64,000 nt of DNA from Lingula anatina (taxonomy: Eukaryota > Animalia > Brachiopoda): positions 13,516,001 through 13,580,000 of the forward strand of contig CM120640.1 of assembly GCA_051362555.1 (NCBI GenBank), given 5' to 3'. How positions within the stretch are numbered: position 1 is the stretch's first letter; the number at the start of each line of letters is the position of its first letter. Under the pieces are notes generated by a model that ran no database searches, was not told the DNA's origin, and was given only the letters and a program-made list of their open reading frames with translations. The translations under genes were made by a program, and so were the position numbers. Shown one piece after another: positions 4,412 to 49,540 of this stretch.

Positions 4412-4578
4412 CAGGGGCGGATTCAGAGATATTTTCTGACAGTCTTCCAAATTATCTTTGTTGATCCATTCTTCTTTTTTGACCGTCTTCCAACAAAAAA
4501 ATTAGATACCCGTCAATGTTAACGTGAAAATCTGACCGTCTTCTGTAAGACCCAGAAGACGGCCTAAATCCGCCCCTG
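4412..4578. mobile_element. ~168-bp MITE with CAGGGGCGGA TIRs and 5-bp TSD (copy 1)
   Basis: CAGGGGCGGATT...AATCCGCCCCTG; flanks ATAAA/ATTAA. Near-identical copies at 5239 and 52792. Confidence 0.85.
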
Positions 4579-5238: not shown

Positions 5239-5406
5239 CAGGGGCGGATCCAGAGATATTTTCTGACAGTCTTCCAAATTATCTTTGTTGATCCATCTTC
5301 CATTTTTGACCGTCTTCCTACAGAAAACATAAGATGGCTGACAATGTAAACTTGAAAATCTGACCGTCTTCCAGAAGACCCAGAAGATGGCCTAAATCCA
5401 CCCCTG
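5239..5406. mobile_element. ~168-bp MITE with CAGGGGCGGA TIRs and 5-bp TSD (copy 2)
   Basis: Perfect AACCC TSD. The empty-site sequence tgaccaaccctgta is seen in neighbouring local repeat units at about 4729 and 5054. Confidence 0.9.
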
Positions 5407-14686: not shown

Positions 14687-17600
14687 TTATGCTTCATCAT
14701 AGATCGGTTCATCAAAGTTTTCATCGAAGTCCTCATCTGGTTCATCTTTGTAATAATCTCCTTCAAGCAGCTTCTTTTTAAACCTTGGTGGTAGATCATG
14801 GTAGAAAAAGGTGCCTGGAAATGTAAGCTTTTAGGTTTTCATTGGCTGAAATTAGTATAGCTTACAGGCTGGGATTGACCAGACTGCATAACAGTATATG
14901 GTTGTTACGTTTTGTTTAATCCAAAGCATTTTTTTCAAGTAACACAGTAAGCATTGAACCTTTACATTGAACTATTTAATTTTCCTGGAAATTTTGACAC
15001 TCCCATTATCACAAATGACAAATGTAATTCATATGTAATCCTGTTTTTGAGTTTTAATTTTGTTATTTTAAAGCAAGCCTCATCAGTGGAGATGAGTAAT
15101 AATCATTGTTAAAATCAGAAATTACGAGCTTTAATATTACTTTATCAATAGTAATTTTCTGGATTGAATGGTTTTGAATAGGGTGTATCTTGGTGACTAA
15201 GGGAAAATTAATTTCCAGATAAATTCAGTTTTTGGTTTAATAAAATCTAAGGTGAAATACATGCTTTTGAAGATTTACAAAATCCACAGATTTAAATAAT
15301 TGTGCTTGACCCTTGAAAATGTGTAGTTACTTTTGATTCCTTTAGGAAGAAACTCCTCTGCATTCATCACACACCCCCATTTCTGGTACTGCCGTAGGAG
15401 TTTATCCCATACTTTATCACATTTCAGCAACTTTTGGTTCCCTGAAACAAGTCAACATAATACAAATGAAACCACACTTTTAGTAGAAAAGGAAAAAGAA
15501 AAAAAAAGCAAATTTCATCAGTTCTACTTCAAAATCCAGTAGCTATACACATATAATTAAATCAGCCTTAGTACAAACCCTTAATTTCATAATCCCTAAT
15601 AACATAACATACTTCCGTAAGGCTTATATAAGTTCATATTTTACCTATGATAATCAGGCATTTTCTGGCTCTTGTTAGAGCTACATTTATCTGGTGAGCA
15701 TCCACTATAAATCCCAAATTCCGTTTAAGCCAGCCAATATTTGACTTGTCAATTATCTCATATTCTGGGATTGAGCACACAGTGGTGAATATCACAATGT
15801 CCCACTCTCCTCCTGTAAAAAGGCATTCTTCCAATGAGGGTTTCATTACAAAAAAGAATGTCAGTAAATGCTTCAAATTCCTCGGTGTTACTGTATTGTT
15901 ATATCAGTATTAGAAAATGAACAGCAAATTCTTAAAATAAAACAGAATCAAAATACTAATGCAATTTTAAAAAATGCAACAATAATTTTTTAAAAGATGA
16001 TACTTTTCTTAATGTGTCAAGCCAATGAACAGACAGGACCTTGACTAGCAACCACTGTGCTAACGTTAGCGTTTCTCCCTTCCAGTTTGCTCCGGATAGC
16101 ATTGACTTGTGCACGATACTGACTAAGAATCATGATGGTTGAGGAAGGGACATTCAGGCCAGTTTTGCTGGTGAGAATGTCAAATATTCTAACCTGATAA
16201 AAGAGAAAATATTGATTAGAATACTATTCACAAAAATGATAACTACCGCAAATGAGAAGAATTGGCCAAGTTATTTTAGTAATTAATTGATATATAGTAA
16301 TTTCTCTCCTCCTACATAGGAAAATATTCAAAAAGCATCACAGTTGTGATTAAAAGCATCAATTATACTGCATCTGATGTTCATATGAGAAATGAATGTA
16401 ATGAATACAAGTTCTATTTCATTTATGGACTTACCACTTCTTCAACTTCCTTCATATTCTTTTTTGACATTTCGCTCCCTTCATTGGTTGAAATAACTAA
16501 ACTTTCCTCCTCTCCTTCCAAATGGAGAAATTTGTATCTTCTTGTCTCCAACCAAAATCGTTTATCTTTAACACCACGAGAAAGGAAGTCGTTTGCACTC
16601 ATGACACATCTTTCCTTCTCATAAATCTGAAGAATCCTCCTCCATGTTTTGTCACACTTCAGCAAAGTCTTGTTTCCTGTCAAGTAGTAGAAAACAGTTC
16701 AGTGTGACACTAAAATCAAGCCAGCTAAACCTGACATATGAAGGAACAATCTTGAACAGCACTAGCGTAAATATGGAAGACTGACAAAATATAAAATACA
16801 GCTACATACACATTTTTGGCTCTGATGCCAAGCATACAGGGCCAAAATTATTGAAAGAGTAACAAACCAAGAAAAATAATCCACAATGGCTGTTTTAATT
16901 CAGATATGAACTGTATCTTAAGTTAGTCTTATGAAACTTTTATTCAGTTTGAGAAAAAATAGCACAAGTTTTTTGTGCGTGTGTGTGTGTTTTGTTTATA
17001 CCCCCCGTCAAACTTATTCGGAATCAGCAGGAATGAAGAAGAATGAGCCTGAATGAAGAATTTTAAAATTCGCACCACATTTGGGGAAAATTTCAAATTG
17101 ACCTTAATTATTATAAGAGTACCGTTAGAATACTCAGAATGCGCTTGAATTCGCCTGGAATAATGAGTGCACTTTCGACTGCATTAGCTCTCAAAAGCAG
17201 TTGGAATGTAGTTGGAAAACTAGGAATATTTATAATGCTGTAAGAAGGCAGTAAGAATATTTAGAATATACTTTGAACGGCGCCCTTGTGTAGTTCGATT
17301 GCTGGCAACATTAATATTTCAGCTCATCCGAACATTCGAAACATTCTGGCGGGATATAAAATCCCTATCACACTAGAGGCAGAATGATTAAGAATGGCAT
17401 CTGAAATACAATTCTTTGTGCATTCCAGGATATTAGAAGAGTATTCTAAAAAAATTATAAAAATTCTGAGTGCATTCCAAATATTTTTACTCATTCTTGT
17501 GGCCGGCTCGAATGTTTTTGTCATGTCGAAAACTTTCGAAATGCATTCCAAGAGGAAATTTATCGCAATATCCCTACAGTATTCCAACTACATTCGAGAC

Positions 17601-20600
17601 GCAATTGAAAGGTAAAATACCTGGAATGTGCAAGAATCATTCCAGGTGGGTTCGATGTGCATTCTCAGTATTCCAGAGGCATTCTTACAAAGCCGTAATA
17701 TTTTATGATAATTTGAAATTCCCTCCAGAATATGGTACAAATTTTTTAATTTAGTAATTCTGGCTTGATTCCTACTTATTTCGAATAAGTTTGACGGGGG
17801 CTTTAAGTCACTTGTCAGTTCGAATATTCCTCTAATGTGATCAGAATGTTTTGAATGCTGTCGAAATGCCGTGAGAATATTTAGAATGCAGTCATAGTGC
17901 AGTTAGAATACTGTTCAAATGCCATTCAATAAATTTCCACTTGGAATGCACTTCGACAAAAACATTCGGGATGCCACAAGAATGGGTAAAAATATTTAGA
18001 ATGCACTCGGAATTTTTAGAATGCTCTTTGAATATCCAGGAGCGCACAAAGAATTGTCATTCCGCCTCTAGTGTGATGGGGGTATTAGAGTGCACAAAAT
18101 AAGCTTTTTTTGTCAATCTTGATGCAACATGACATAATCATGTCATCAATTTTTTATCATATACTATTATTATTGTGAATTCAATAATACAATAAGGCTG
18201 TTTTTTTTTCATATTCCAGCTTTATATGGTCATAGGAATTGTTTTTGTAAGGTTAAAAAAAGTACTCTGTTTTTCCTTCTCTGGTGTTAAAAAGGCAACC
18301 AATTTAAAGACACTGGTACATATAACTGCTAAATATCCAGACACAGTGTCTGATCACAAAATAATCTAAGCACGGTAATGACTTAATCTGAATGAATTTA
18401 TCAAAATAATTATACCTAAAACTATTTTAAATGTGTTCTAAACAGGCTATGTGTCAACAAAGAAAAAAATTGAAGTACGTAATTTCTTTTATGTGCATGT
18501 AGTTGCTTAGCACTTGTAACTGTCACACTTTAACCATGCATCCAGCCTTCAAATTTTTATCAAATGAAGCACAGTTTCAAAATCAACAACCTATCATAAT
18601 TATCTTCTTCCTTGCTCTTCTATATGCCACATCACATATTTGCTCCTTCACAACATGAGGAAGTCCAAGCTGTTTTTTTCGCCAGTCTGCATCTAACCGA
18701 AACTGATCAATCTCATCTTCAGGAAGAGAGCACACAGCTGAGAAGATGACAATGTCCCACTTCATATGCAGCATTTCAGGTTCTTAAAATATGAAAAAAA
18801 TCAACATAAAATGGTTAACCTCAGAGTCAGTCAAAAGGAGACATAGTATTATGGTTCCAAACCATTTGTCATTCCAAAGCATTGCTCATTTTGTACATAC
18901 TAAAAAATAGCTTTTACATAATAATGATTCATTATTCACTGGTACATGTACTTTTATACCACCAGTTTGGTAGAAAATTGAGCAATCATCACAGAACTAC
19001 TACATGCTTTAACTTCAAAACATTCCAAAAACCTCAATTTACTTTGAATATCAGCAACAAGTTTGACATTTTCAGGATTCTCTTTCTTCTGATTGTCAGC
19101 AACATGTATGACGTTTTCATTTTCAAGTTTCCTAATCATCTCCTGAATGGCCATGGCCTGAGCAGGGTACTGGGTCAGGATCATGATGTTTGTTGGAGGT
19201 ATTTTTAATCCATCTCTGCTGGTGAGAATATCATATATCCACCCCTTGAAGTGTACAACATTTTGTATCAATTACTGTTGTAAATGCAGTGGACTATAGA
19301 AAGAATGGTTGCTAGTTTACTGTTATTATTTCAACAGCAGATAAAAAGTTATCTGGCTAACATTCTATCCATTAGATTGAGCTTACCTTGGTAATGAATT
19401 AGGTGCAAAAACTGTTAATGCCCATCACAAATGTATTTTTCTACATAATTACTGCATGAACAGAAGTTTATAATGATTAAATACTCACAACTTCTTGTAC
19501 TTCATCCATATTCTGCTTAGATGGAATATTGGTCTTTGGCATGGTGACAATCTCTTGTTTTCCTTCAATATGAAGGAATTTATATCCCTTGGTTTGATAC
19601 CACAGACCTTTAGCTAAGTTGGAATAATCTTTCAAGGCTGACTCTTCTGTGAAACTAAGCGCCTTCCCATCCTTCAGTTCTCCGTCATAAAATTCCCATG
19701 ATGGAAAATGACAGATATCTGGGTGCTGAAGGTATACAATAAGATCACATAAAATCTTTCAGTAAGAGTGGACCTTATTGTATTCATTTAATTTCTTCCT
19801 AGAATAGAGGGTACTGGAGGAGACAGGATTGTGCTGGAAGTGACCTGTAGTGGTTTAAGACGTGAAGCCGACTAGTCATCTAAAAACTTGTCAAAATCTT
19901 TAAAAAAGCACAGCAATCGTGGTTCGGTGCGCTTCAGTTGTCAGTTGCAAACTACTTCCTGGTTTTCACAAGGTCCTTCAAGGACTCTAAAACATCGTTA
20001 TAATTGCGGCACATACCATAAATCACCCAAAAATGATTAGATATGGGCATATCAGATTACATAAATGCAAAAATTCCACATGACAAAGATTCACAACCTC
20101 TTGGGAATTCTTTTCCCATGACACTCTTTATTGCGCTGTTGGTCGATGCAGCATATCTTTCAAAACAAAATAACTATAAATTAAGCATGATTTTGCACCT
20201 TCAAGTATTGTAACATGTTTTCATATCATGTACCTATTATTTCATCTAGTATTTTCTGCCCAAAATACCAAGAGAAAAAATGTTATCTCACTATGTTATT
20301 GGCAAAACTGCTTTTTTCTCTGAGCCCACATCTTCACTCCCGTTCACCTCCAGCTAAAAATGACCACTCAGCGTCTTACACCACTTGACGTCACATGATG
20401 TCACACTTCCGGCACAATCCTGTCTCCTCTGGTACTCTCTACTGAGACTGGTATTAGTGTAGCATTTGATAGCAAAGTGTCATCAATAATGTACAGTACT
20501 TGATGCATGTTTTTAAATTTTTTTTGGCAATATTTCTATAATCAAGAAATAAACAGAACATACAACCAGTATGTGGTTCATTTCTGACTATCTGTCACAT

Positions 20601-21120: not shown

Positions 21121-24100
21121 ATCAACTCGGGAGTATTCATTGGGACATGCTTAAATTCAACTAAAAACCTACCATTCTGTACTGAAAATCAAGCATAACT
21201 TTGGCGGGTCCATTGTCTGCAAAAGATGCATAGCGTTCAAACAGGGACTTTGCAAGGCCAAATTCACTAGCAGTGTTGTTCTTGATGATAGGCCTCAGTT
21301 GTTTGTGGTCACCAATCAGAATAACCTGCTTGGCTTTTGATGAGACAATAGGTATCAGGCTCTCTGCTTCTACGCACATTCCACTTTCATCTACAATACA
21401 CTGCTCAAAGCTGCTGACCCCTGTTATTTTAGGAGTTCCACTTGTGGTGCATGTGCATAGAATGACATCATGAGAACGGATCTCTTCTTCTTCTGCCTTA
21501 GCAACCAGCTTTCTGTATTTATCTAAATCTTCATCTGAAACATCATACTTAACTGGGTCCTCAAAGAACTTTTTGAAGTCTGCATCGAACTTGAGTAGCC
21601 GGGTGGCATTAGGCTTTCCTTTCTTCCTGATGATGTGATGAAGAGCCACATCTTTGTGGGCAGATGTAGAAACTACCTCTTTTTCTGTCCACGATAAAGA
21701 CTGTTTTGGCACAGGGTAGTCATGAAGAACTATGCTGTCACCATACACTCTGAGTATTCTGGGGCATATAGAGGGCCTCTTGTCTTTGGCGTTGACAGAT
21801 TTTGGATCAAATTTTCTCTTCAGAAAATCTAGAAAATGATTGAACTTGAATTAATTATGATGTATGAATTTAGCATCAAGTCCTAAATTGTATTTCCTAG
21901 GATAAAAAAATGTTTAAACCAAAATATTATGCATCTATTACCTGTGACCACATCCACTGATTTATTAGATGGTCCACAATACAGAATTTGTTTAGGAGAT
22001 TTTCTTCCAAATTTCTCCCTGTTCCACTGAACAAAAAGGTACACGAGGCGAATACCAGTCAAAGACTTCCCAGTGCCTGAAGCAGTAAGAATTCTTGAAT
22101 CAGTATCATTTACCCAAAGCAAACTAATACCTCAGTTCTGTATCTTATTTCATACCTTTAATTTCATGTCTTTTAATTTTCAGCATACTTTTATCAGTAA
22201 AAGAGTTTATTTTTTATCTTACAACATAACAAAAAGATAGTGTTATGAAGGCTGAGATGAGACTATATAAATGTCACATTTATCCAATTTTGTGTCTAAA
22301 AGTCTCACCAGGTGGACCTTGAATCAAGGCAAATGGCTTAAGTAGAGCCTCTTTGCAAGCATCCTTTTGTCTCGGATTTGCTTTTGGAAGATAGTTTTCC
22401 AGGTAAGGCGCAATTCTCTGGTCCCTGTTCTTCATTGTGTTGATCGCACGTCGTTTAACCTCCACTCCATACTTTTGTTTCATTTTCTCTATTCTCTCAT
22501 CTTCTGCTTCTTTCCATGCAAGACGCTCTTCTTCTGCTTCAGGATCTATTTCATGCTTTAGAAAAAAGCTTTCAACTTCTTCTTTACCTTTTAAAAGTAA
22601 AAAAATGTATGCCATTAATAAAATATACAACTATTCCAGTTTCAAAAATTGATATTCATGAATTAACAGAATTATTAAAATAATAAAATGAAAAAAGGAG
22701 AATGAAGACAAAAAGAGACCCATCCCAGAAAACATTCAAATGAAAAAAATTGTTTGTCATTACAAGCAATAGAAAAGGCAGATATTAGCATCATATAACA
22801 TCATGCAATACGTAGGTTGAATGAGCAGGTGACGTGGTAAATATCACCTTGTCCAAGTTGGTATTGCTCCTATTTTAGATAGGATGTTTCTGTAAATTAA
22901 TTCATGCTGTATATTAAAAAAAAAGATTGTTCTTCAATTTCAATCAATTACCATAGTGAAGTGAAAATGTACACAATTTAAACTTTTAAGGATACTGAGT
23001 AGGTCATCATGCATCATATAAAAAATGCATGTGTATTTTCTTGAGTACATACTTCTGCCTTCTAAATTCCCCATCAGGTCAGTATTTCCCAGTGCTATTT
23101 TTTGTGGCAGCTGTCCATGTTGTGTATCTGAAAGTTCCCTCACTGCCCACTCCATTCGTCTGGTACAACATAAAAACAAAGAGCAACATATCACATACAT
23201 CAAGTTCAGATCTGTAATATATTACTTTTTAATTTCAACTGCCATTTTGTTATTTTCCCTCTATGACATCTTCTTTACACAAAGGATTAAATTAGACTTA
23301 ATTTTTGGATTCACTACTTAAGCTAATTGAACACAGGTTTCATAGGTAATGAGCATCTTATTATTTTTCTATGTGAAGATTTCAGTCTACAACTTGATAA
23401 AACATACCTATCTGGCAAAGTTTTTGAGATGATCTCCACAATGCATGGCAGAGCAGTGTTTTTGTCTTGACTTCTCTCAAATATCACAGCAGGCACATCA
23501 TTCCCTTTTAACTTGAAATATACAGTCAAGGCTCCTTTCTGTTCAACATGTAATACCAAACCATGAGCAATCCACATTGCTGCTTTGGACTTCACACTGG
23601 CTAGAACAAACTTGGCACTGTCACTCTCAATGGGATACTCTGCAGGTAGCTGTGGATACATAATACACAGATAGTCAAAGTATTGCTTGGTGTCCCGCAA
23701 CTTACTCTCAAGAAAATCCTCTGATGAATCATCTTGAAGGTTGAGACGTATGTGCCTGTCTTCACAGAAAGTGTGCCCCATCTTGAATTTTCCAAAATAG
23801 ATATTTTCTCTCTTAATCCATTGCACTCTAACATTCTGGATACTGACTGATTGATCATTTGTAACAGCACTTACAGCTGCTTCAAGCTGAAGTAGAGAGA
23901 GCAGAGTATCTTGATAGGCTTTCACATTTTTGTATGTTTCCTCCAGATGACGAGCAGTTGACAGTTTGCAGAATGCATCAACAGGATCTGCACGATGTTG
24001 CATACAAAGGTGAACATGCTCAGACAGACTAAAAGCTGCCAAGTGGGGTTGAAGAATGCCACGTTTCAGTTTTGAGCTAAGCAAAACTTGGACTACACTT

Positions 24101-27100
24101 CCTGGGTTCAGGTCAATTTGAAATTTGATTTGTTGTGAAATGACTTTGTTTTCCTTTCCATGAAACATTTCTGCACTTGCATTGTCCACATAATGAGCTA
24201 GACTTCCTCTGTGGTTTTCTTTGAAAGATCTTACATTTTTGTCACAGTTTTTCACAAAACTGATCAACATTTTGTCTTCTCTTTTGGTAGCTTTAAGAAT
24301 CTGGTCCCACAAAGAAATTGGCACATTAAAAATGAATTGATTTGGATTGAAGTGAAGAACCTTATCCTTATCAAACCGCTTCTTGGAAGATGCCTTCACC
24401 TTTGAATCTATGTCAAATATTTTCTTGTTCCAGATCAAAGAAACTTCCTTGGAAGTGCACATATTGTCCTCAACAACTTGATGAGGGACACTTGGTCTTT
24501 CACATACCCCAAGGTGGTTATATGGTAGCTGCATTAAACTTGGTGACACAAATTGCAGCCCGGGAGTTGTGAGTTGTATGCTTCTACCATCAATTCTTGT
24601 CACGACTGGGAGGATGGACATAAATTTGTTTTCTTTCAGCATCAAAGAAAATTTAAGCATTTTGCAGCTTCTATCAAATTGCTTTGCTTTAAGAGCACTG
24701 CTATTTGCTCTATCACATATTTCTTGTATCTCCTCTTGAGTGTATGGTGGCTTTTCCTGATCCTCAAGCATTGCAACTACCAAACGATGGACAACAATAT
24801 CAATGTATCGTCGGATAGGAGATGTGAACCTTGTGTACTCTGAAAATTCTAAATCAAAATGTGCCATTTCATCATCAGGTATACTTCCAGAGCAAACCAT
24901 TTTGGCTTTTCTTTGAATTGCTATCCAAGCTGTAAATGTGCTGCACTGCAGAGGATGAAGCTCCTCATAGGCAAAAAGGCGTCTTAGAGTTTCAAAATGA
25001 CAATCTGGGTTCACTGCTTTGAGATGAGCTTCTTCCCAGGTGCTCTGACGAATTGGCATATAGCGTAGATTTTTAGGGTCTTCAAAGTCAGGATATACTC
25101 TTCTAAGCCATTGTCCTGGTTTACTGGAATGCATGGCAATCTCTGCAAATGAATCTTTCCACATTTCCAACTGTGAAGAGTTGGGTGAGGGCTGAACTCT
25201 CAAGGGAACATGCATTCGGTACTTTCTGAGCAATTCCTTTGCAACTGTTTTATTAGTTAGTAACATGAATTCTTCGACAACACTTTCTGCCTTGCTACCC
25301 AGCAGAACATCCCCAAGTCTCTTTGCTGAAAGTTTTTTGGCAACTTTGTACAGCAGTCTCACAGCTACTGCAATTTTTTTATCCTCTTCTGGGACATCTG
25401 AAGAACTGATGTACGCATTTGCTTCTTCATATGTTAGCTGTCTTTGTGATCGGATTGTTGTTCTCCTTATTTCTGTAGGCCTGTCGGCATACAGTTCACC
25501 ACTTTTTCTGTCTGCATAAAAGAAAACAGATATAACAGGCCTCACACGGCCTGCAATCAGGCTGCAAGCATGAGCACTCAGCTTCTCTGGTAACATTGGC
25601 ACAGGTGGATCTTCAATGGATGGGTAGTATGTTTCTCCCCTCTTTTCAGCTTCTGTGTCAATTGGATTTCTTTCTTGTAAATTGTCCTTATTCTTCTTCA
25701 CTTTCAAAGATACATCAGCAATGTGAACACCTATTCTTATGTCTTTTCCTCCCAAATATTCTACACTCAATGCATCGTCAAGATCTTTGGCTCTGGGAGG
25801 ATCTATAGTGAAGGTAGCACCTCCATCCTCGTCCTCCTCAAGCTGACTGAAGATCTCTTCATTGGACATTGCTGTGATGGTATCATTCACTTGTGCAGGG
25901 AATTTTTCACTTAAGTTGTACTGTATCTTTAAGATATCCAATCTGCTTTCCCAGTCTTCTGACACAGCAAGCTTCTTAACAACAACACCAAGTGGATAGT
26001 AGTGATATCGATCCCATTGCAGGTAGCGAACAACAAACACTGTATGCTCACGACTATGAACATTCAACAGTTCAGTTTCTTTATGAGTTGGCTGTCCTGT
26101 GCTGTCAAGGCTATAAATAGCAACTTCATTTTCATTTTCAGCATCTTTGTTGTAAATGTGAATCTTTGGAAAAGTGTTGCATAATGGCAGCATTAGGTTA
26201 GCCCTAAAATGGTCTGCAATACAAGCAAATCTTGCATACTTCCTCACTTGAGTTTGCCTCCAAACACCTATGACTTTGCCAATGTACACATCAGCACCCT
26301 CTGGTGGATTCAGTAGTTCAACAACAACTTCAGATTCATTGAAAGCCATACCACACTTGTTTCTGCCAAACAACTCTATCCTCTGAATAGTCTCTGTTTG
26401 ATCAATAGGTACAGCATAGGCCTTTTGTGGTGTTTCAAGGTACAAAATGCACTGCTTAAACTGCTCTGGATATTCTTGCAATTTGTTTCTCAGGTCTTCT
26501 TTTGGGAGGTCTTCATAAAATGGTTCTTTGTCTCCTATGTACTTATCAGCTAGATAATTCTGATAAGTTTCATCTAGAAAATCCTCATCATCTATGATTT
26601 CATTAACCAAACCACTTTCACAATACAGATTTCTACCCTTTTTCCAGTCATTTGGATTGTCAAAGATATTGGCATTACCTGAAGTTGGCTTTTCATCATC
26701 TCGTTTAAAATCAAGATGTGGTGTTTTCAATTTACTTTTTGTCCTCTGTAGATTGACCTTCATGTTTTTTACAACCTTTTCAGCCAAGGAATCTGGCTCT
26801 GTGCCAATTTCCCCAAAGTCACCTTCACTGTCACTTAAAACACCTTTATCCGCAGAGATTCCATCATGAGATAGCTTTTTACGTTTGCCTTTTATCACTG
26901 GTGGCTTATACTTTGCACATGGTTGGGTAAACATTTGCAAGTTGTCAATTTTCTCAAAACATAGATCTTCTGGGGAAAGGGTTCCTTTCTCATCACAAAT
27001 TCTAAAATAGTGTTTCCAAACATCATTCTGGTTTGCTTTTGACAAAAGAAATGGATCTCCAAACACAACAATGTGTAAGCGTGCACAGGCAAACACCGAG

Positions 27101-30100
27101 TTCAAAGTTTTTCTTTCTTCCAAACTTCCAAAGTCTACTGGACCTGTCACATAGCGTGGGGTTCTCACAGTACTCAGCAGAGTACTTTCAAATTGTGTGC
27201 CTGCACATGAAATAAACATTTTTTATATTAAATTCATATCTTTATTTTGGCTATTCAAATTAAAATCTGACCAAATTCAAAATCAACACATATGACCTTT
27301 TGTCAGACTTCTGACTGTAGTAACTTTCTTATATATTGGGAAATATTTTACATTTAGGCTTCATTCACATGGAAAGTCTATTTTCTAAATTCTATTTTCT
27401 ATTCACGGTATGACTTGTGATCACGGTCTGTGCCCTGAATATCCCACGGCGTAATTACTGGCAGGGCGAGCCAGTTACTTATACGAAGCTGTAATTAATT
27501 CTCCGCTGTGCTCCGAGGAGATTCTGATACCTTGACATATGCGCAGTAGGAAGTGATCATGATCCGATGGCAAGTGATGCGGCAACGGAGGATGAGATTT
27601 TATAGAATGCGAGCACAGCCGAGAATTAATTACAGCTTTGTATAAGTCCCTGTGGTGTTTCCAGACCTCTTTTGTAGTAAAAGCTTAGTGCACTGGGACT
27701 GCCAGGATATTCATTCTCTACTTCTAGCTTGCCATCATAAAAAGCATTTGACAGAAAATGTATGATGTCAAAAGATTTTCCTGAGAGCCTTTTCAGAGGG
27801 AACAGGTACATCTGGTTTTCATTTTCCTGCAGCATCTTCAGCCTGTTTGTCAGAAAGTGACTAAGCTCATTTTGTGATCTTGATCTAGGTGTCACGTGTA
27901 CACTAGGGGACACACACATCTCGGAGGAGATTCTGATACCTTGACACATGCGCAGTAGGAAGTGATCATGATCCGATGGCAAGCGATGCGGCAACGGAGG
28001 ATGAGATTTTATAGAATGCGAGCACAGCTGAGAATTAATTACAGCTTTGTATAAGTAACTGGCTCGCGCTGCCAGTAATTACGCTGCAGGATATTCAGGG
28101 CACAGACCGTGATCATAAGATACCGCAAATAGAAAATAGATTTTAAAAAATAGACTTTCCATGTGAATGAAGCCTTAATGTTAGATATTAATGACAAGGG
28201 TAAAATGTGACAATCTTTTTGATTTAGAAAAGAAAAAACACACCACTTTCTGTGTTGCACTTTTTGAGCTTTGCAAAATGCAATGAACAAGAGACCCAGC
28301 TTTGCTTACTAGTGGTCACATTTTTAAAACTCTTTGTAGCACATAATAAAAATGGTGGTGATTATTAAGCATTATGTAATATTGCATCAAAATTGACAAA
28401 AAAAAAACTATTTTGGGCACTGCTACAATATTGACCACTAAGGGAAAACCATGTTACTTATGATTCTCAAACTTACAGAAAAGATTTTTATGTCTGAAAT
28501 ACAGCTTGAGTTGGAAAACCATTGTTTATTACCAAGAGCACACTTTTTGCACATGTGCAGATGTTTGACACCTGTACTGGTGATGGCTACATGTATATGT
28601 GTCTGTCCATAAAAACTGTTAACCTGAGGTATATACCTGACAAAAACTGACAAAAATTTTAAGAAAATGGGGCAGAAGTTAAGTTTGCCCATACAGTAGA
28701 TAGAGATTTCAACCAAAAAAATCTATTAAATAAATGTATAAAAAACATCATATTGATCAAGAAAAACTGCACACCTTGTCTTGTGTATTAGCTGCTGATT
28801 AAAAAAACAAGAAATAAATGAATGAATGTATCAAACACACCTGGAACTGATTCTGGAGACAAAATGGTCACTTTTTCTCTTATTGGCTTCGGGAGACCAT
28901 CAAAGTATTTCTCAAGAAGGTTTACCTGAAATGAAATGAAATGGTAAAAATTTATTACTGCCATATCCTTTATATACAAAAGGTGTCACAGTTAAGGATA
29001 CATAAAAAGAGTAATGTACACATAAAAGGAGTTATGTATTTTGGATAAATATTAATGTAAGTTATCAAAAATGACTATGCTGACACATGTACTTCAAGTA
29101 AAAACAATTATTAAATTGACAGATAGACAGTGATGATGAATTTATGACATGCACAGCTTTGGGGATTCTTTACTTTTTTTGCAACATTACATGTGAATAT
29201 ACCTGCGCCAGAAAAGGAGAAATAACAGCTATGTCTTCACTGAAAGCGGCTATTTCCTGAGCAACTTCAAACACCTCTTTTGCCTCGGCTTCATTGAAAT
29301 AAGACAGTCCCTGCGGTGTTTCCAGACCTCTTTTGTAGTAAAAGCTTAGTGCACTGGGACTGCCAGGATATTCATTCTCTACTTCTAGCTTGCCATCATA
29401 AAAAGCATTTGACAGAAAATGTATGATGTCAAAAGATTTTCCTGAGAGCCTTTTCAGAGGGAACAGGTACATCTGGTTTTCATTTTCCTGCAGCATCTTC
29501 AGCCGGTCTGTCAGGAAGTGACTAAGCTCATTTTGTGATGTTGATCTAGGTGTCACGTGTACACTAGGGGACACACACATCATGGGGTCAACAGTCAAAA
29601 CAACAATTGTCTGCGTACATTCGGCATACATCAGTGGGATGATACTCTCAGTCTCATTTGCTTTGTCCATGCCATCAATTATCACATGGGTAAAAGCAGG
29701 GAATTTGTTGACATCTTTCCTCAACAAGAGAGAGGCTGTCAGTGTTGTAACAATAATTCGGTGTTCATCTACTTCTTTTTGAGTTGGACTGGGATGCTGA
29801 CTGCAGTACTGCACTACTTCAGGCTGTAGGCAGACAGGGGAGGACAGACCTAGTATCCTTAGAGGCCTACTTGTATAGGGAAGCATTCCACCACTAATCC
29901 TTCTGTCCAAATCCATGACATATGCGTCCACATCACTATAAGAAATATTGAAGTTATTAAGATCATTAGGCCAGTTGGGTAATATGTAACTAATTATAAG
30001 TGATAAAATTATCATTTTTACGTTACTTATAATCATTATTATCATTATTAATCTTTTGTGTTTGTTCTTATAATTTTTATAGTGCATTATTAATTACAGT

Positions 30101-33100: not shown

Positions 33101-36100
33101 ATTCTAGACTATAGCCTGGGTGCCCTATATATCCTACTTTTATCTGTTTAAATTCTTATATTATAACTCAAAAACATATATTAATGATGACAAATGCAAC
33201 AGTGCAACACCCAACATTGCAAACTGCAAATACAGTATCAAGAGAAATCATCCAAGATAGCAGTAGTAACAATTCAAGCTCTCGGCATGGCAAAACCAAT
33301 GTGAGGTATGTGGGGTTAACTGTTCAGCAAATAGGGTGATAAATATACACACTGAGAAAATGGTGTTAGAGAGACATACATAAGTGACATGCAAAATATA
33401 GTAAATCTGTACCATAATTGGACAGAACTGATTGAGAGACAACGACCAAGAAAATACAAATGGATAAACTCTACCAGACTGAGGTTAATTTCATTCCTAA
33501 CCATGTACACAGCACTCAATAGTCATTATTTCTGATCCCAGTCTCCTCCCACTCCAGTGAAACCCAGTTTCATTTTACTCTAAGTCAAAACACTTTGGGC
33601 TATCTCAGATGATTCCCATTTTTCCTAATGATATTTCTTATTCCAGATATTATATGGTAAACATAATAACAACTGTAAATGCAGTGAAAGAGAAAAAAAT
33701 TCTACTAACTGGTCACAGAGTGTGTACTGCTGTGCATCTGGTGGGCAGCGGTGAGTCCAACTCTGACTTGCCCTCAGTTGCTGAAGGTGTTTCTCTGAGT
33801 TAAGATGTTTATCAAACTCAGACCTGTGTTTCCACTTCTTGCAGCACACACCACACTCATAAAAATGAGCCTGGGAAACTGGTATTTTTGCACTGACATG
33901 TTTGATGCTAGGCTTTTTGCTAGGACTTCTTGGGCACTGCTTTACTGTTTGAAAATATCTTTCTGATGCTTGCAAAGCATCAGTTAACTCAGAAACTGAA
34001 ATTAAATAAGATCCATAGTCATTTTAATGAGCAAAAAATTAAAAATTACACCCTATGTAAAGATAACATACCAGTTATAGTACATCAAACATGCAACTAT
34101 CTAAGATTTACTTAACCTTATAATCTTCCTATGAGATGCATATACTGTAGTCCTTTGGGTTCTGAACAAATGCAATGAGTCTGTACACTGGGGAATTTGA
34201 ATTTAACAAGAACACTTGTAAAGCTTTGTAAAACAGTTATCTGTATATAGACTGTAGTTACTTGCTGCTTACCTTGGTTTCGTTTCATCCATCTCCACAC
34301 CAACATCTCTTGCTTACTATGGGCATAGTTACATGCCTTTTTTATACAGCCCCATTTTGTATTCAGATATTTACATAAGCGTGGTGTAAAATACGTTTGT
34401 GTATGTGGTTTTCGGATTTGGACATACTGACAGGAGGGTTCAACATTATCCTTACAAACAAAAACTGGATTCCAGGTATGATTTCTTTTTTCACATTTAT
34501 TTTTTTGTCTTGCAACCAATCTTTTGTGATCTTCTTTGTAGCACTGACCACAAGTTTCAAATATCTGAAATTTTCTGAACTCCTTTTCTTGCACAGAAGG
34601 AACTTCTGATGAGGCAACAGCACATGCAGATGAAACAGGTTCAGCAGGGTCTAAATTTACACCTGGGATTTTCACTAAGGATGTGACAGATGACAGAGAT
34701 GCTATGGAATCTGACCGTGATAGATTTTCTCTACTCAAACCACTAGTAACGTTGGCATATGTCCTGGTATCTACCAATTTCTCACTCATAATGGAAGAAT
34801 ATTCTTTTTCGGAAGAGGCAAGGTCTGGTATTTCTTCACTGAATGCCTCACTTTCCTGCAAAAAATACCCATTGGGGCCATTCAGCATGAGAAGACCCAA
34901 GTGCTAGCTGGTTCACAGCCTAAATATGGTGGACCTACATGAAAGGAAGACCGCTTAATCCTGTAATGGTCTCTTTCACGCCTTCCAACATGGCATCCCT
35001 GCAGGGGCACAGTAATAAAACCTCGTCTCAATGCGACCAGGCGAGGGAAGACATGTGGGAAGGCATATGAGAGGCGGAATGACCATTACAGGATTAAGCG
35101 GTCTTCCTTTCATGCAGGTCTGCCATATTTCGGCCCTGGACCAGCTAGCACTCAGCTCTTAATTCTCAATCTGAATGGCTCCATTGACTTCAAAACAGCA
35201 TGGCAAGCTTGAAAATCTTGTTTGATCAAATTATATTTTTACTTTCAATTCAACTGCAAAACATACAAATAGCACTATATGTCATTCTAAAAGGAAAAAT
35301 TAAGTTGACAGCAAAAGTTATACATAAAAATATCAACTGCTACAATAACGAAGGTTCTTACATGTGTTTCTGTAAAACAAAATTCTTGACACTCTTCCAA
35401 AATGGAATATTTGAGATCATTTAGGAAATCTTCATTCTGAAAGAAATGAATATTTTGATCCTCTTATTGATAATTTCATTAAAAAAAGAAAACACACTGA
35501 AAAAAAAATGCACTTCAAGGCACCAAAATATTTGATTTATGGTTTTGTAAGTGAAAGTAAACATTAAGGTTGCATTTTAGCTTATCAGCACAAAAAAAAA
35601 AAAAAAAAAAAAAAAAATTGACATTTTATAAAACTGAGATATTTTGATCAAATCAAGTTTTGGAAATTTCCACTAGATTTTTGAACATTTGGAACATTTA
35701 AAATTAATAAATAGAATTGTGCTATAAAAAATAGAGAGGTCTTTTTACAATATACAATATGTAGGTGTTCCATAGGTCCCCTCTACCCTCCCAAAAAAAA
35801 GTAAATAAAGGTTTGGAAAAAATAATGAAATAAAATAAATAAATAATTGTAAATAACTGAATTGTAGCTGCCTTACCTTGGAATCACATTCAATTGCTAG
35901 GTTAACTGCATCCATTGCTTCAGAATATTTTTTTTGGCATCTTAATACATTTGCTTTCCAAAAATGCAACTGCCCCATGTGCCCATTTGCACCATAATCC
36001 ATACATTTGCTTTGAATGATTTCAATGCCTGAAAGTGGCAAGCCAATAAAGTATGAAATTAAGCAAAACAACAGATTCAGAGACTGATTAATGCTAAAAG

Positions 36101-40573: not shown

Positions 40574-42043
40574 AGCGCTGAAGTTAAGTCTGGTTTCTAG
40601 TTTCCAGTTTCGTTTTTCAAAAACGAACCTGGCAACCAGAAACTAGTGTCGTTTTTCTAAAACGATTTTGAGAAGCCAGAATAGTTTTTGCTGAGAGAAA
40701 CAGGGGTGGACGGAGGGAGAGGTAACCGGCGATTATCTTGTACCGCGACTACGTAACCTTCACAGCGAAAGCCGTGTAGGGTGTTTAGGTGGAGTTGGGG
40801 GTGGGCAGATGAGAGTGAGGAGGGGGAAGAGTCCGCAGGGTCTCCATTTGTAGTTTGAGGTATAATTTTTAATTTTATTGAAAAACATTCTGGCTTCTCA
40901 GAATCGTTTTTAAAAAACAACACTAGTTTCTGGTTGCCAGAATCGTTTTTGAAAAACGACATTAGTTTCTGGTTGCCAGAATCCAGGCCTTCCCAACTAC
41001 CAGACTAGGCACCTACGGGTCCAGAATAAACCGGTATATCTGACCACACTACCCGTTTTCAAGGTGTGTGTCAGATCGCATAAAAGAGTATCATACCCTA
41101 TCACAAATTCTGTAAGTCTACCTGTCATCCGGGTATCGCGCCTCGTTTTCGTCAAGTAGGAGTCGCATGAATACAACAGACGACTCCCTCAATCAGGGGG
41201 TGGAAACGCGCTACTTATATGATTAAGACGAGCCTAGCCGTCAGTACCGGTTATTGTTTTGTGACCTTGAGGAGCAATTAGGTTTGGTCGTTGCGGCACG
41301 CATCAACAGTAGTTGAACTACCACACCTGGGTCTTTTGTTTTTGACAACTGTTCACTCGTCATCGAGGCGCTTGTTCAAGACTACAGGCTGATATCTACT
41401 AGTACTACCAGTGGCTTCATTAGTAACGTTCCCACAATACTTAAGTTTTCTGTCCGTGCGTACAAACCCTGAAAAAGGACAGCCTCGCTGACGAGAACAA
41501 TGGACGTTTCTCACCCCTCTCTAGGATTACCCCTGCCCTCAATCTCGTCCATCCCGGTAGTCACAAAAATATTTAACCCCCGACAGAATGTGCTTCTGCT
41601 ATCAAAATTAGGTATACTTTTCTAAATTAATATATAAGTTTGCAAGTTCTTATTTACAAAACATCAATGGCTATGTCCGAACCTAAATTTTATGTTAAAA
41701 ATTGCGGTACTGTCAGATTTTAGCATAAACAGAGAAAATTGCAGCAGCGCATGAATCTAGATGAGATGCACTACTTTCCAACCCCGCTTAGGATCATTGC
41801 TATCACATCGCGCACCAGGCAAAATCGGTGTGGTGGCTGATACTCTGTAATGCGATCTGACACACACCTTGAAAACGGGTAGTGTGGTCTGATAAATCGG
41901 TTTATACTGGACCCGTAGGTGCCGAGTCTGGTAGTTGGGAAGGCCTGGAATCGTTTTTGAAAAACGAAACTGGTTTCTAGTCGGCAGGCTCGTTTTTGAA
42001 AAACGAAACTGGAAACTAGAAACTAGACACTAACTTCAGCGCT
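40574..42043. mobile_element. Inverted-repeat element with subterminal GTTTTT(C/G)AAAAACG arrays, host of a nested insertion
   Basis: AGCGCTGAAGTTA...GTTTCTAGTTTCCAGTTTCGTTTTTCAAAAACG at the left end is the reverse complement of the right end at about 41990-42043. No clear TSD. Confidence 0.75.
40984..41947. mobile_element. Non-autonomous DNA transposon with ~105-bp TIRs, CAG termini and GAATC 5-bp TSD
   Basis: CAGGCCTTCCCAACTACCAGACT...AGTCTGGTAGTTGGGAAGGCCTG, with GAATC on both sides. Removing it restores the host repeat unit gaatcgtttttgaaaaacga seen at about 40940. Confidence 0.9.
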
Positions 42044-45000
42044 CTTTTCTGCCCCATTTTGGTAATTCTCTTAGTTATACTACTTGAAACTATATGCTGG
42101 CATTCGGTTGGCTTTTGTGGCAAAAATTGACTTTATATGCATTTTATATAGCTAAAAAATATCTAAACAAATATGGTCGCTATTGACCTAACCTCCGTTA
42201 CGAAATGACTCATTTTTCATTTGAACATTGGATATGTTTGTGCTGATTGATCTATGCTCATATCAAAACAGATTGAGAGCACTTTGTTAATAAACAAATA
42301 GTATGATATAATTATATGTCTGTCCCCAATGATTCCTAAAATATTTAAATTGAAATATCTCAGGCTTTGTATTTATAGAAAACGTTTGACTTATTACCAA
42401 TACTGTTAGCACCGCATTTTCTATAATTAAAGAGAAATCTTAAATTGGTAATAATTTTTTGAATACATACAAAATCTTAATAATTGAATCAAATATGGCA
42501 CCTGTGACCTTTGGCATGATTGAAATATAACCTAATTTAGATGTTACCTAACCTCCGTAACGAAAAAAATAGGGTATCGTGTTTACACGTGCATATGTCT
42601 TTAAATACAGTAATGGTGTAGGTTAAAATTCTCCTACTACTCTCTGAATACCCCTTCATGAAAATAATATAAAAAGTTTCCCAGTTTTGCATATTTCTGC
42701 ATTTCTCGTTTTGGAATTGTACCCTTTTTCATGGAATGGCGGTGTAGGGTTAGGTGGCATGAAGCTCGGTGGTAATCAAATTTTATAAAGGTTCATGTTA
42801 TTAATATTAGATAATTAAAAATTGGTGGTAATTTTACAGTTAATCATTATGTAATATTGCATCAAAATTGACAAAAACCTACTTAGTGCACTACCACCAC
42901 AAACGTTATTAAAAGAAAACTGTGTTACTTATAATTTTTTGACTTACACGAATAATTTTTAGGGTTGACATACAGCTCAAATTAGAAAACAAGCTCTGTT
43001 GGAGTCAGGATTATCATTTTTTATTGAATTAATGCAATTTTAATGAAATTTTCATTTTTCTCATTCTGGCATTTTCCAAGTCTAAACTTAAACTCTCATG
43101 GCAGAATTGACAGTATCCTATTTTGTGCATTATTATCTTTTGCTTTTTTGTCTTTGCATTTGACAGCTTTGCTGCCTTGTTAACTGTATACAAATTATAT
43201 ACAACGGTCCTGCAACAAAAATAAAAAATCTTTTCCCATTTTTTTTTTGTATAATAATCATTATTCTACTTAATTTTTTGTGATTAGATAGGCATGTTTA
43301 TAGGGTGAGGGAGATCTGTTTGAAATCGATGTTACAATTTCACCCAATAATCTGCTGTTACATCGTCAGCTCAAATTGACAAATTCCCCAAAATGTATTA
43401 CAGAAGTGAAAGCATTATCTCATAACATGACAATGTTCATTTCCTCACTATACATGTATAAGCAGATAAGAAAATATCCTAACGTATCCAACCCTGTAAA
43501 AGTTACACACTTGAAAACATTGTTTAGAGAAGATTTATATCATATTCTCTTGAAAACAATTGCCTGTAATTACAAATATGCAATTCATAACTATGTAGGT
43601 TTTGTGAAACGAAACTGAAAATTACCCACTGAAAAATAAATGGAAACAAGAAATAGTTCCAAATACAATCCCTATACACAAAATAGTCACCCGAGATACG
43701 TTGTCTATATTTCAGGTCTCAGCATCCATCAATACCATTCACTGAAGTCATGCCTGGTGTGCAGGTGGGGAGTGAGAGCGTTCTGGCTAACAGTTCTGCA
43801 TCCACGGGAATTGTTCAAGTATATTTATTTCCATAGGGCGGTAATTCTACTTAATCGGAGCTGCTGACAAACCCAATTCTTAGTAAGCCTGGCCTATTGC
43901 CAACTGACTGTCGATCTTGTGATCAATATCACGCACGGTACTTGTGATAACATTTTTGGCAACTTTGGAAATTAATTTATAAGTCACCTGTTGATAGGTT
44001 TTAACAGAAACAGCGATTAAACAATTATCCCTGTGCTTTATCTTTTGTCAGTCGATTGATAGTCATCTCCGTGCCATCCTTGATTAAATCAATTTACAAA
44101 ACAGGCACTATGCGGGCTCACAGTTGTCACTTGTGAAAACTTCAGATGATTTCTGCCAATATCTCCCAGATTTAGAGGGGTGGGGCATTTTTGATTTCTA
44201 CAGATAATAGTGGCGCTATCTCTCCTAGATGCGCGCGGTGTGCAAAACAAACTTGCTTTACTCACTTCGTATTGCAAATATTGTGATGCGACAATAGCCT
44301 GTGAACGTCATTCACCTGTGTAAATGGGCTTTAAATACATCGATAACTACAAAAACCGTCTTTAGCTTAAGCAATCTAATGAATGCCACCAGCCAAAAAG
44401 CTACTTGAAGGGCAATAAAATGATAAAATGTTGATGATTTTATGCAAGGTACTTGCGTTTTGTTCTGTGATCCTCTCCAAAGGTGTTTATGCATGTAGGC
44501 CTTATCATAAAATATGAAATAGTACTTATTTAATCAATCTGTCTGTTTGTTTACAGCATTGCCTGCATTGTTGCAATGATCTGGAGATAAAACCCTAGAG
44601 AACAAAAAGTCGTCGGACCAACAACGAGCTATAAGCTACAACAAACGAGTCGCTGGCAAGCCAACGCTGTGGGCCGATTACGGCGTCACTTGCATGTCAC
44701 GTGAAAAAAAACTGCGGTAATACCCACGTTATCAGTGGTGAGACATATTACTTATTTTTAATCGAAACTAAAATAAAAGACGGTATGTCAAGTGTACAAA
44801 CGTTGATCACCCAAACAAAATATAGAAGTGCATTTCACATGGTGAAGTATCAAAAAACTGAATTGAAAGAATGCTAAGTTGTATTCAGTTTTTTTTTAAA
44901 CATATACGTGCTTAGAACAACAATCCACGACTGTCTCAATTTTACATACATTAAATGTTCACCATATTTATACATTGTGTAACGTATGTTCCGGGCCGTA

Positions 45001-46630: not shown

Positions 46631-47649
46631 TTTCAGAAGTTAATACAACATCGATAGTATTTTGCTTCAAATGGACAGAAGTGCGTAGAACTGGCATAAG
46701 TGGGTTTCAACTCAAGAGTGTCGCTTGTGATATCTTTATGTCCACACAGAACACAGGACAGGCACATTTATATATTTTTATTATAACTATGGCAAGCCAA
46801 AGGGGAAATAATTGCAGAACATGTTTATCACAGCCCAGAACCAATAAATAGTATTCAGAAATATGATTTCAATGCCAAAAATCATATCTATACACATATC
46901 AGGAAGTAAATTTATACTTCAGAAATGATTTCCTCTTCAGAAATATCCTACATCATAGATAAGAAACATTTATCATTCATAAGAACTGAAGTTCATGTTG
47001 CAGAAAAAAAAACAATATCAGAATATTTTAGAACATGTTGCAGGAAAAAAAATCACATCAGAATTTTGCCAGGAGACCACGTGACCAAGCCGGTAACGTC
47101 ATTGACATGTTGTAAAGTCCATAAAGTGATTTTTTTTCTGCAACATGTTCTAAAATATATATATATATGTTTTTAGGTCTTCCCTTTTAAAATGGTGGAT
47201 TCATTCCCATGTCTACAAAAACTATACAAATTGAGAGAAAGCACTTTTATTTAACATCTTTCATACACCATTTAATACCAAACTGAAAAATAAACATAAA
47301 ATTGTGTATTACTTTTACATACAGTTTCAAAGGAACATAAATTTACATGATGAACAGAAGTTATTACTAAATGTTTAACACTGTACTTATCTTCAAAATC
47401 CTTACAGGAAAGGGTCTACATATTTTAAGAGTTTTTTAAAAGTATTGAATTTGATAGGGAGTTAACAGATTTCTAAATGATACACAATATATAACAATTA
47501 TTATATGGCAGGATTTTTACACCCATATGTTTACAACTAGTTTTATCAACTAGTTTTATCATTTATTCAGGACCACTAATTTCTCCCTATGCTTTTAATG
47601 GTTTTATGAAAAATCATTATAATTTTTCATTAAGACATATTCTTAAAAT

Positions 47650-49540
47650 AACTAGAGGATCAGAGAGGCGATACCGCCTCCGAATATTGTACCACCAGCT
47701 GGAGCAAGCGCATTCGTATAGACCCCCACATACACAAAGTAAGGGACACAGCCACCAGTCTTGTGCTTGACAAGCTGTAAAAATGCAATCAACAAAAATT
47801 TTCAAAATATGCAAAAAATATATATAACTTAAAATGGTACAATCAAAGTGAATTCATCGTAAGGTAGGTCAAAGGTCAATTTCAAGATCACAGTAAATTG
47901 CCAGTATATGACTTCCTATTGAAGTTTAATAGTAACTATGAACCTATCTCTGCCAGTTTTGGAGATAAAAGGGAAGCAAAATTCGCAAAGTTCAGTTCAT
48001 GGTGAAAAGTAGGCCAAGGGTCAATTTAAGGTCACATTTAGATTGCCAGTATATGACTTCCTATTCAAGTTCAATAGTAACTATGGACCTATCTCAGCCA
48101 GTTTTGGAGATAAAAGGGAAGCAAAATTTGCAAAGTTCAGTTCATGGTGAAAAGTAGGTCAAAGGTCAATTTCAAGGTCACTGTAAGATTGCCAGTATAT
48201 GACTTCCTATTCAAGTTCAATAGAAACTATGGACCTATCTCTGCCAGTTTTGGAGATAAAAGGGAAGCAAAATTTGCAAAGTTCAATTCATGGTGAAAAG
48301 TAGGTCAAAGGTCAATTTTAAGGTCACATTTAGATTGCCAGTATATGACTTCCTATTCAAGTTCAATAGTAACTATGGACCTATCTCTGCCAGTTTTGGA
48401 GATAAAAGGGAAGCAAAATTTGCAAAGTTCAGTTCATGGTGAAAAGTAGGTCAAAGGTCAATTTCAAGGTCACAGTAAGATTGCCAGTATATGACTTCCT
48501 ATTCAACTTCAATAGTAACTATGGACCTATCTCTGCCAGTTTTGGAGATATAAGGGACTAAATGTTATAATTTTGGAGTTACCATAATGTGCCATAAATT
48601 TCCTACAGAAAAAAATTAATTAAAATAAAGAAAAAGTCATTTTGGTCAAAATTCTTGAAATGGGAGGTGCTCTGAAGTTCCAGAAGTTCAAATTTGATGA
48701 AATAATGTCATTTTTGACCACAAGTTGTCTGCTTTGCCAAGCCTTATATTTTTTTTTCTGGAGTTCAAAATTTATTATCCATTACTGTACTGCACATTTT
48801 GCTTTCACCACCAATATGTACTTTTTGATACAGCGTAACTCGAAAACCGTATGCAATACAAAAAAACGGAGACCACCTACAGTGTTGGGCTTTACATGCT
48901 CTACAAAATGCAAAAAAGAATGGGTCTCTAGCGTTAACAGTTCCCGAATTAGAGACAGTTTTCAGTTTCAGTATCTTGTGGCCGCTACTCCTGTGAAAAT
49001 GCACCGATTGATCCCAAATTCACGGAGATGAAAGATGACCTGAAGGGTAACAACTTCCAATAATATTATTGGTTAAGTCTGTGTGGTGTCTGAATAACAG
49101 GGCAAATAATTTTTTTTCGTAAAAAATTAATTTTTTTGAAAATTTTGGCCCGTTTGACCTTGAAATAAAGGTCAAAGGTCAAATCCAATGGCATATTTGA
49201 AATGTACACATATGACTTTTGGAAAGCCGTCTGTAGAAATTTTTCCCATAATGCCTTCCATAGGGTAGATAATTAGCATTTAATTTTGCCATTTTTAGAC
49301 AAGGGTGCATTGCAATGAGTGCCACACCTAGACCCCAATTCCGACAAAGCCCAAATTTTACGTGGAACGAGTTGAGATTATAGGTGACCTAAATCCAAGA
49401 GATGGGTACGGGGGCCCTTACCGGCTAGGAGGAGAAGCGGTAATGGTAGCCGTCCGGCGGAGCCGCAGGAGCCGGCGGAACGATCCGGACGGGACTAAAA
49501 CCATGTGTACCGCCAGCGCTAACGCTGGTGGTACAATAAA
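47650..49540 (-). mobile_element. Non-autonomous Helentron/HINE-like element with internal tandem array
   Basis: Subterminal inverted repeats TATTGTACCACCAGC (47685-47699) and GCTGGTGGTACAATA (49524-49538). Hairpin at 49506-49535 at one end; hairpin GAGGCGATACCGCCTC plus CTAGTT terminus at the other. A/T-run insertion site and no TSD. Confidence 0.8.
47856..48557. repeat. Tandem array, 145-146-bp unit x ~4.8
   Basis: tagg(t/c)caa(a/g)ggtcaat recurs at 47865, 48010, 48155, 48301 and 48447; the units are highly similar. Confidence 0.95.

Follow-up and report, generated by a model that had tools for sequence, protein, structure and literature searches.

How does a piece of a gene's own coding sequence come to lie inside a transposable element in one of that gene's introns? 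The question is raised by a 64,000-nucleotide stretch of the genome of the brachiopod Lingula anatina (assembly GCA_051362555.1, contig CM120640.1, positions 13,516,001 to 13,580,000), called the window here and numbered from its first letter. Within it, an intron of a HELZ2-like gene holds a miniature inverted-repeat transposable element (MITE) loaded with a 276-bp copy of a nearby helicase exon, referred to below as the cargo. The answer favored here, with moderate confidence, is that repair of a double-strand break inserted the exon piece at this very site, with no transposition involved.

The whole MITE occupies 27357-28174 (818 bp) and is bordered by TTA target-site duplications (TSDs) at 27354-27356 and 28175-28177. 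Its left terminal inverted repeat (TIR; 27357-27513, plus strand, 157 bp) and right TIR (28020-28174, minus strand, 155 bp) are identical in 144 of 157 alignment columns, and the outermost 28 bp are without mismatch. Two plus-strand copies of a 137-bp segment of the element, D (27511-27647) and D' (27920-28056), frame the cargo and differ from each other by four substitutions; D comprises the roughly 100-bp loop of the MITE and the inner 37 bp of the right TIR. The cargo itself (27645-27920, minus strand) corresponds to the inner part of the exon for the first helicase, residues 1209-1300 of the NCBI protein P0001. It matches exon positions 29306-29581, 1,661 bp away, in the same orientation with five substitutions (98.2% identity, E 3e-134), is in sense to the host gene, and includes neither splice site of its source exon. 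The letters AGT are common to element and exon at the left junction, J1 (27645-27647, plus strand), and a single C is common to both sides of the right junction, J2 (27920, plus strand). An earlier note, made from the letters alone, had described the element with its long TIRs and TTA TSD, the cargo with its five substitutions, and the two flanking copies with AGT at the left; the anatomy holds on remeasurement, the alignments were reproduced, and the shared C on the right is a new detail.

The junctions were sought in public sequencing data. Six of the 21 runs listed were examined, four of DNA (X1, X2, X3 and X6) and two of RNA (X12 and X15), with contig depth taken as a rough measure and not as copy number. 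J2 is present in X1 as an exact 63-bp contig (27891-27953, depth 135), with 30 and 33 letters on its two sides, and J1 is present in X2 as an exact 65-bp contig (27619-27683, depth 211), with 29 and 36. The longest exact match that a cargo-free locus makes to either junction string is 30 bp. An assembly artefact is unlikely because each junction is an exact contig in a public run. In X1, the exon contig forks exactly where the cargo ends, and the depth of the exon path (114.9), plus that of the junction path (135.2) over only those words that a cargo with the window's letters would share, predicts a mean of 136.0 for this contig, where 136.1 was observed; identical cargo letters would predict 145 and duplication of the whole region 250. 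This suggests that the allele of the window is present in X1 and that graph cleaning removed the J1 path there. In X2, a 190-bp core common to cargo and exon stands at depth 297 vs 144-153 on the left flank. Positions 28211-28293 are uncovered in all four DNA runs, a gap that is not used as evidence since the filter omits records.

The same runs bear on whether the element or the cargo arrived first. In all four DNA runs, the left flank extends 25-27 bp into the TIR, which places the element's left end at this site. One 3,254-bp contig in X3 spans both cargo boundaries of the exon unbroken (depth 19 vs 24 on the flank), and depth in X6 is about 90 over the core vs 62-95 nearby; no sign of the cargo was seen in either run, in contigs that drop variants and cannot prove absence. 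Given the element's end in all four runs and the lack of a cargo sign in X3 and X6, capture in place, after insertion, is therefore likely. The element is probably common at the site and the cargo not, and probably only some individuals carry the loaded allele.

The source of the second element copy is clear. D' is a copy of the locus's own D and not of another family member, because both carry an A (27537 and 27946) that is rare in the family. About 97% of family depth differs at this position, with G in 29,056 of 29,892 in X1 and 33,771 of 35,435 in X2, and RNA reads have G in 31 of 31 and 27 of 33 cases. A copy made from the locus itself is a further pointer to capture in place.

These observations can be arranged into a single repair event. 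An element of about 409 bp would already have been resident at the site in the cargo-free full form TIR-D-TIR; in the DNA and RNA runs alike, family members normally continue beyond 27647 with the right TIR. Such a hairpin-folding element may have broken at about its stem-loop boundary (27511), and the start of D lies within 3 bp of the predicted stem end (27512-27513) in the hairpin of the empty element. The left end would then have been extended by strand invasion, with 137 bp of the element recopied as D, and synthesis would have switched at the common AGT to the exon 1.66 kb off and copied 276 bp. End joining of the extended end to the right end at one common base would have given D-cargo-D'. 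Because cargo letters occur in other alleles, synthesis probably used the homologous chromosome as its template, or else a haplotype replaced since. Local template switching during repair or replication, as the earlier note had proposed, is supported by the anatomy and the hairpin boundary; the individual steps are what we infer from them.

The letters that distinguish cargo from exon were traced through the runs. The X3 exon contig differs from the cargo at four sites, all among the five, which implies the cargo letter at 27653. X6 agrees with the cargo at 27844 (39 of 71 depth) and at 27879 (55 of 55) and has five other variants in 127 bp. For 27847 and 27854, the cargo's letters turned up nowhere but in the X2 contig that leaves the element's path. 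With three of the five present in other haplotypes, these letters are therefore probably alleles and unable to tag cargo-derived RNA, and the idea that they could serve as diagnostic single-nucleotide polymorphisms is not supported. Heterozygosity in Lingula anatina is given as 1.6% (PMC4595640), and the nine differences in 413 bp (D and cargo together) are consistent with it (P 0.22). Selection on the cargo (three of five changes synonymous, P 0.07-0.15) was considered and rejected, as the letters look allelic. Error-prone synthesis was likewise considered for the four of five changes that fall within 36 bp (P 0.03), and a haplotype block fits better. Allelic diversity in X6 is high, with two haplotypes that differ by five substitutions and three gaps over 157 bp of intron (29081-29236) and by five substitutions over 127 bp of exon (27713-27839).

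The locus appears to be a single-copy Pack-TIR or a repair-mediated duplication, a class that has already been catalogued. In a catalogue of 370 animal Pack-TIRs (Tan et al. 2021, PMC8277862), 160 of the 281 unique ones lie at most 15 kb from the parent, and 190 show microhomology. PIF-Harbinger elements account for 21 of the 370, with 15 of the 21 at most 15 kb from the parent, and some Pack-TIRs lie inside the parent gene. Like the single-copy Pack-TIRs described there, the present element has nonelement sequence of 100-5,000 bp within one TIR element, a parent in cis at most 5 kb away, microhomology, and an element apparently older than its cargo. The insert is 276 bp, within that size range, and 98.2% identical to its parent, where the catalogue asks for at least 90%; the parent, in cis at 1,661 bp, is flanked by coding exon with no window repeat within 100 bp, the insert falls inside one exon and has no poly(A), and the microhomology amounts to 3 bp and 1 bp. 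Unlike the Pack-TIRs in the main account of that paper, which usually show a small loss at the break (median 4.6%), the element here has 137 bp, a third of its length, duplicated, and its cargo seems to segregate within the species. The 12 supplementary files of that paper that were searched hold no entry for 'Lingula' or 'brachiopod'.

Repair of this kind is also known from other animals. Pace, Sen, Batzer and Feschotte 2009 (PMC2671141) describe 824 proximal repair-mediated duplications in human transposable elements (TEs), one of which placed an ACSBG2 exon in an intron of that same gene, and suggest homologous chromosomes as templates. The present case resembles theirs in a donor at most 5 kb away (theirs a mean of 1.2 kb), an insert of at least 50 bp and below 619 bp, a position within a TE, microhomology and other repair marks, and no poly(A) tail. 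However, the halves of the TE overlap here by 137 bp instead of rejoining within the +/-30 bp of their filter, which would miss such a case; the breakpoint duplications reported in the parts of that survey drawn on here are 4-21 nt, and these parts cover vertebrates only. Kamp et al. 2021 (PMC8654963) trace tandem duplications of 100 bp to 10 kb in C. elegans to abortive synthesis-dependent strand annealing that is completed by polymerase-theta end joining. The copied tract is duplicated there as it is here, with minimal microhomology and occasional templated insertions, but the worms were repair mutants, whereas this is a wild allele. Turmoil-1 of C. elegans (Sela et al. 2008, PMC2572040) is likewise a Harbinger element with long TIRs that has taken up coding fragments of host genes; as described there, it differs in being autonomous, in carrying cargo in both TIRs, in having spread by transposition, and in parents unrelated to its insertion site. 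No literature naming this locus, or holding both 'HELZ2' and 'Lingula', was found in a search that most subscription papers lay outside.

Several points weigh against a single repair event at this site. The AGT at J1 says little against chance, since at least three shared bases occur in 5.5% of random breakpoint pairs, and the 137-bp duplication falls outside the range of Pace et al. (PMC2671141). A single study supplied both samples behind X1 and X2, and either is possibly the source of the assembly. The bridging rule asks for 31 letters on each side of a join, and both junction contigs fall just below it (30 and 29 on the short side); a contig also proves that a join exists and not where it is. 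J2 alone was found in X1 and J1 alone in X2, so that no run has both, and the paths in X2 do not fit the window's allele. The silence of X3 and X6 on the cargo belongs here too, for the reason given above.

The alternative that survives best also places the origin at this site, in two steps, and is possible though doubtful. A microhomology deletion at J1 would first have joined D to the exon, with a loss of about 1.25 kb (the outer right TIR, an 85-nt exon, and the 3' end and donor of the source exon), which would likely leave a null allele. A later break in an intact chromosome would then have been repaired on the deletion allele, with one 413-bp tract (D plus the exon piece) copied in a single run and end-joined at J2. 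What looks like a captured exon would in that case be a deletion scar that an intact allele acquired by copying. Such a history accounts for the allele-sized differences both between D and D' (4 of 137) and between cargo and exon (5 of 276; Fisher P 0.49), and the frame of a J1-only allele hits a stop six codons beyond the junction. X2 has J1 and no J2 contig, and its contig with cargo letters (494 bp, depth 170) continues past 27920 with 387 letters unlike 26800-29260, most simply the remainder of the exon, although the 387 letters themselves were not seen. The intact entry into the core in X2 has a depth of 76.5, half that of the left flank, and the intron at 28792-29260 is one contig, also at 76.5.

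However, the X2 core needs about four copies (entries 211 and 76.5, exits 170 and 153), more than one intact and one deletion allele would supply, and the second exit, which has exon letters at depth 153, departs at 27885 into 23 unmatched letters. Depth is no copy number, the sample is possibly a pool, and graph cleaning can drop junctions, as in X1, which is without the J1 contig that its depth implies. A J1-only allele could alternatively be a later product, formed by collapse between the direct repeats of cargo and exon. The exit at 27885 (exon position 29546) may represent a third junction or allele; a join there into a 168-bp repeat family of the window via a shared 7-mer was considered and is unsupported, as 208 of the exon's 780 7-mers can be found in one repeat of the window or another. 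In its widest form, the two-step history would make the hairpin MITE a fragile site with an allelic series of empty, J1-only HELZ2-null, and loaded forms, the last copied from the deletion junction of the homolog, which is a tentative proposal. What sets this locus apart is the 137-bp internal duplication together with the hint in X2 of a J1-only deletion allele. That the cargo arose in place by one of these routes, in one step or two, is held with high confidence.

The remaining explanations fare much worse. An assembly chimera of two haplotypes in a heterozygous animal is improbable. The differences between cargo and exon and between D and D' would be of the right size for alleles, no listed contig bridges the whole element, and no run shows both junctions. 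Against this, both junction strings are exact and at single-locus depth in two different samples, at least one of which is independent of the window's source animal, and the depth sum in X1 agrees with the window's allele. Overlaps of 1-3 bp are also not what overlap assemblers join on, which counts against a chimera.

Slightly weaker again, and very unlikely, is a loaded element formed elsewhere or during transposition, that is, a mobile Pack-MITE, present or past, that spreads a HELZ2 fragment. The outer 28 bp of the TIRs and both copies of TTA are intact, the family is abundant, and the depth of J1 in X2 (211) exceeds that of the local flank (about 150). On the other side, X3 and X6 have the left end of the element here and yet give no indication of the cargo, and the depth of J2 in X1 (135) is close to single-locus depth (106-136). 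Several TIR positions of this copy also depart from the letters that prevail in the family, so that it is no fresh insertion. The parent is 1.66 kb away, whereas the multicopy Pack-TIRs treated in the main account of Tan et al. (PMC8277862) lay far from their parents. The window has one loaded copy, adjoining its parent, with a higher J1 depth in X2; the mobilization that the earlier note had envisaged finds no multicopy sign in X1. Derivation of the exon sequence from the element, with all family members carrying the segment, can be dismissed with near certainty, as nothing was found in its favor. Element parts have a depth of 10,000-800,000 and the cargo one of 19-425, and both the RNA reads and the contigs of the family skip the cargo and pass straight to the right TIR after 27647. 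The segment is an internal part of an uninterrupted helicase exon, where it overlaps the AAA_12 match, and the exon peptide can be aligned over 85% of its length with a beetle protein (29% identity). Copying from exon to element, the direction given in the earlier note, is supported.

What in-place repair produced is most likely a passenger without effect in the intron, present in some members of the population. In the predicted fold of the sense strand (-367.7 kcal/mol, z -19), the two TIRs pair and the loop holds the cargo. The earlier note had suggested a double-stranded RNA stem in the pre-mRNA with exon sequence in its loop; such a hairpin is predicted, but its stem is element sequence and would also form without the cargo. 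The exon piece should give no HELZ2 double-stranded RNA because it is sense-oriented and in the loop. A chimeric 122-aa frame, also pointed out in that note, is open because it is copied coding sequence, but it starts with TTG, yields 107 aa from its first ATG, and has no support as a meaningful open reading frame. In the RNA runs (2026), about 6 in 100 of each of which was read, 58 and 64 reads align within 27600-27965. The cargo received none of them, and every one lies on an element part; reads from the source exon would align to the cargo too, which makes the result uninformative on cargo expression or alleles. A crude splice scan of the element gave weak acceptor-like sites at 28084, 28069 and 27843 and three 6-of-9 donor matches, none of them convincing, and no evidence was obtained in these analyses for splicing, expression or mobilization of the cargo.

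Membership of the element in the PIF/Harbinger superfamily is plausible from its sequence. The ends begin with GGC, in line with the A or G that starts PIF/Harbinger TIRs, the TIRs reach 157 bp, the element is short and noncoding, and summed contig depth over the TIRs is thousands of times that of the flank in all four DNA runs, features that agree with a PIF/Harbinger MITE. The terminal motif presumably resembles animal Harbinger ends. Both copies in the window have 3-bp TSDs of the TWA type, TTA/TTA around the loaded copy and TTA/TAA around a short relative at 2847-3096. A TWA TSD defines PIF/Harbinger (PMC4482050), but Zator elements, such as Zator-1 of amphioxus, likewise have 3-bp TAA/TTA TSDs (PMC12905397, PMC10045372). 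The Harbinger assignment of the earlier note thus fits the TSD and termini, and the TSD does not separate it from Zator. A metagenome scan with the terminal 18-mer for an autonomous partner, which would encode a DDE transposase and a Myb/SANT protein, gave 37 loci, with one match of at least 24 bp (E 0.18) and no paired ends, which is the level of chance.

The short relative had been taken for a cargo-free form of the element. It does lack the cargo, but at 250 bp it is internally deleted and without D, and is not the true empty form. A palindromic motif in the TIR arms (2940-2985 and 27634-27647) is where both its internal deletion and J1 fall; the motif may be a hotspot for breaks or the site of a nested element. 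Many family contigs jump from about 27410-27525 to 27612-28057. The relative lies between two pieces of a decayed frame of a non-long-terminal-repeat retrotransposon (2509-3770, minus strand), with a weak RVT_1 match (E 3e-5) for 3243-3770.

The gene that supplied the cargo appears to be HELZ2 type from its sequence. The source exon, for the first superfamily 1 (SF1) helicase domain, covers at least 29203-29937 on the minus strand (its extent set by P0001) and contains the parental stretch 29306-29581. The donor of the next exon (28841-28925, minus strand, 85 nt) opens the element-bearing intron, and the spliced frame is open and matches P0001. The intron ends at a large downstream exon (23323-27200, minus strand) with the end of helicase 1, OB_HELZ2 and RNB, and 156 bp separate the acceptor of this exon from the element; spliced together, the three exons give an open frame. 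The Pfam order is AAA_11/AAA_12, OB_HELZ2 (E 3e-24), RNB (E 3e-61), and a second AAA_11/AAA_12, so that RNB and OB_HELZ2 sit between two UPF1-like helicase domains, in agreement with the naming of the gene in the earlier note. Every aspartate of the predicted RNB catalytic motif is kept. The source exon peptide is 100% identical to P0001, which NCBI labels probable helicase with zinc finger domain, Lingula anatina; a protein search with this peptide found two proteins, and a Protein Data Bank sequence search with it gave no match. P0001 (1,512 aa) stops inside exon 23323-27200 at about 26764, and the frame stays open for about 1,150 codons more, through OB_HELZ2 and RNB. The NCBI annotation seems to split one HELZ2-type gene.

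HELZ2 combines zinc fingers, an SF1 helicase, an RNB nuclease and a second SF1 helicase, and is reported from corals and molluscs (Huntzinger et al. 2023, PMC10516660). The sections of that work used here report interferon induction and nuclease activity for human HELZ2. The Lingula gene shares the domain order given there, and its N-terminal half is what carries the NCBI label. The earlier note's description of the fragment as antiviral finds no support for this animal.

Repeats and inverted repeats are frequent elsewhere in the window. The element's own intron has another high-copy repeat (28343-28519), related to 42811-42990 and 18089-18141, and further palindromic or inverted-repeat elements lie in and around the HELZ2-like gene (34870-35186, 40574-42043, 16996-18057 and 47008-47174). 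A second MITE-like family, of 168 bp, has copies at 4412-4579, 5239-5406 and 52792-52959 that are 88-91% identical, with CAGGGG...CCCCTG ends and no clear TSD; from these ends, the family is taken to be hAT-like. A tandem repeat at 47844-48557 has about five copies of a unit of about 142-146 bp that are 90-94% identical. A single long frame for an adenosine-kinase-like member of the PfkB family (7743-9023, minus strand, E 6e-60) is possibly a retrocopy because it has no introns in an intron-rich region.

The locus adds one more in-place capture of a gene fragment and extends a catalogued process to a brachiopod. With two 276-bp direct repeats now 1.66 kb apart, the gene would also be prone to a deletion that cuts it short ahead of the nuclease domain. 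If the hint in X2 is true, the separately segregating junctions would reveal both the order of the steps and the template, sister or homolog, of a process in which the birth of a Pack-TIR is otherwise inferred from finished products. If the allelic series is true, a Pack-TIR would have been born here in two steps by way of a null allele of an innate-immunity gene, and not in one gap-filling event.

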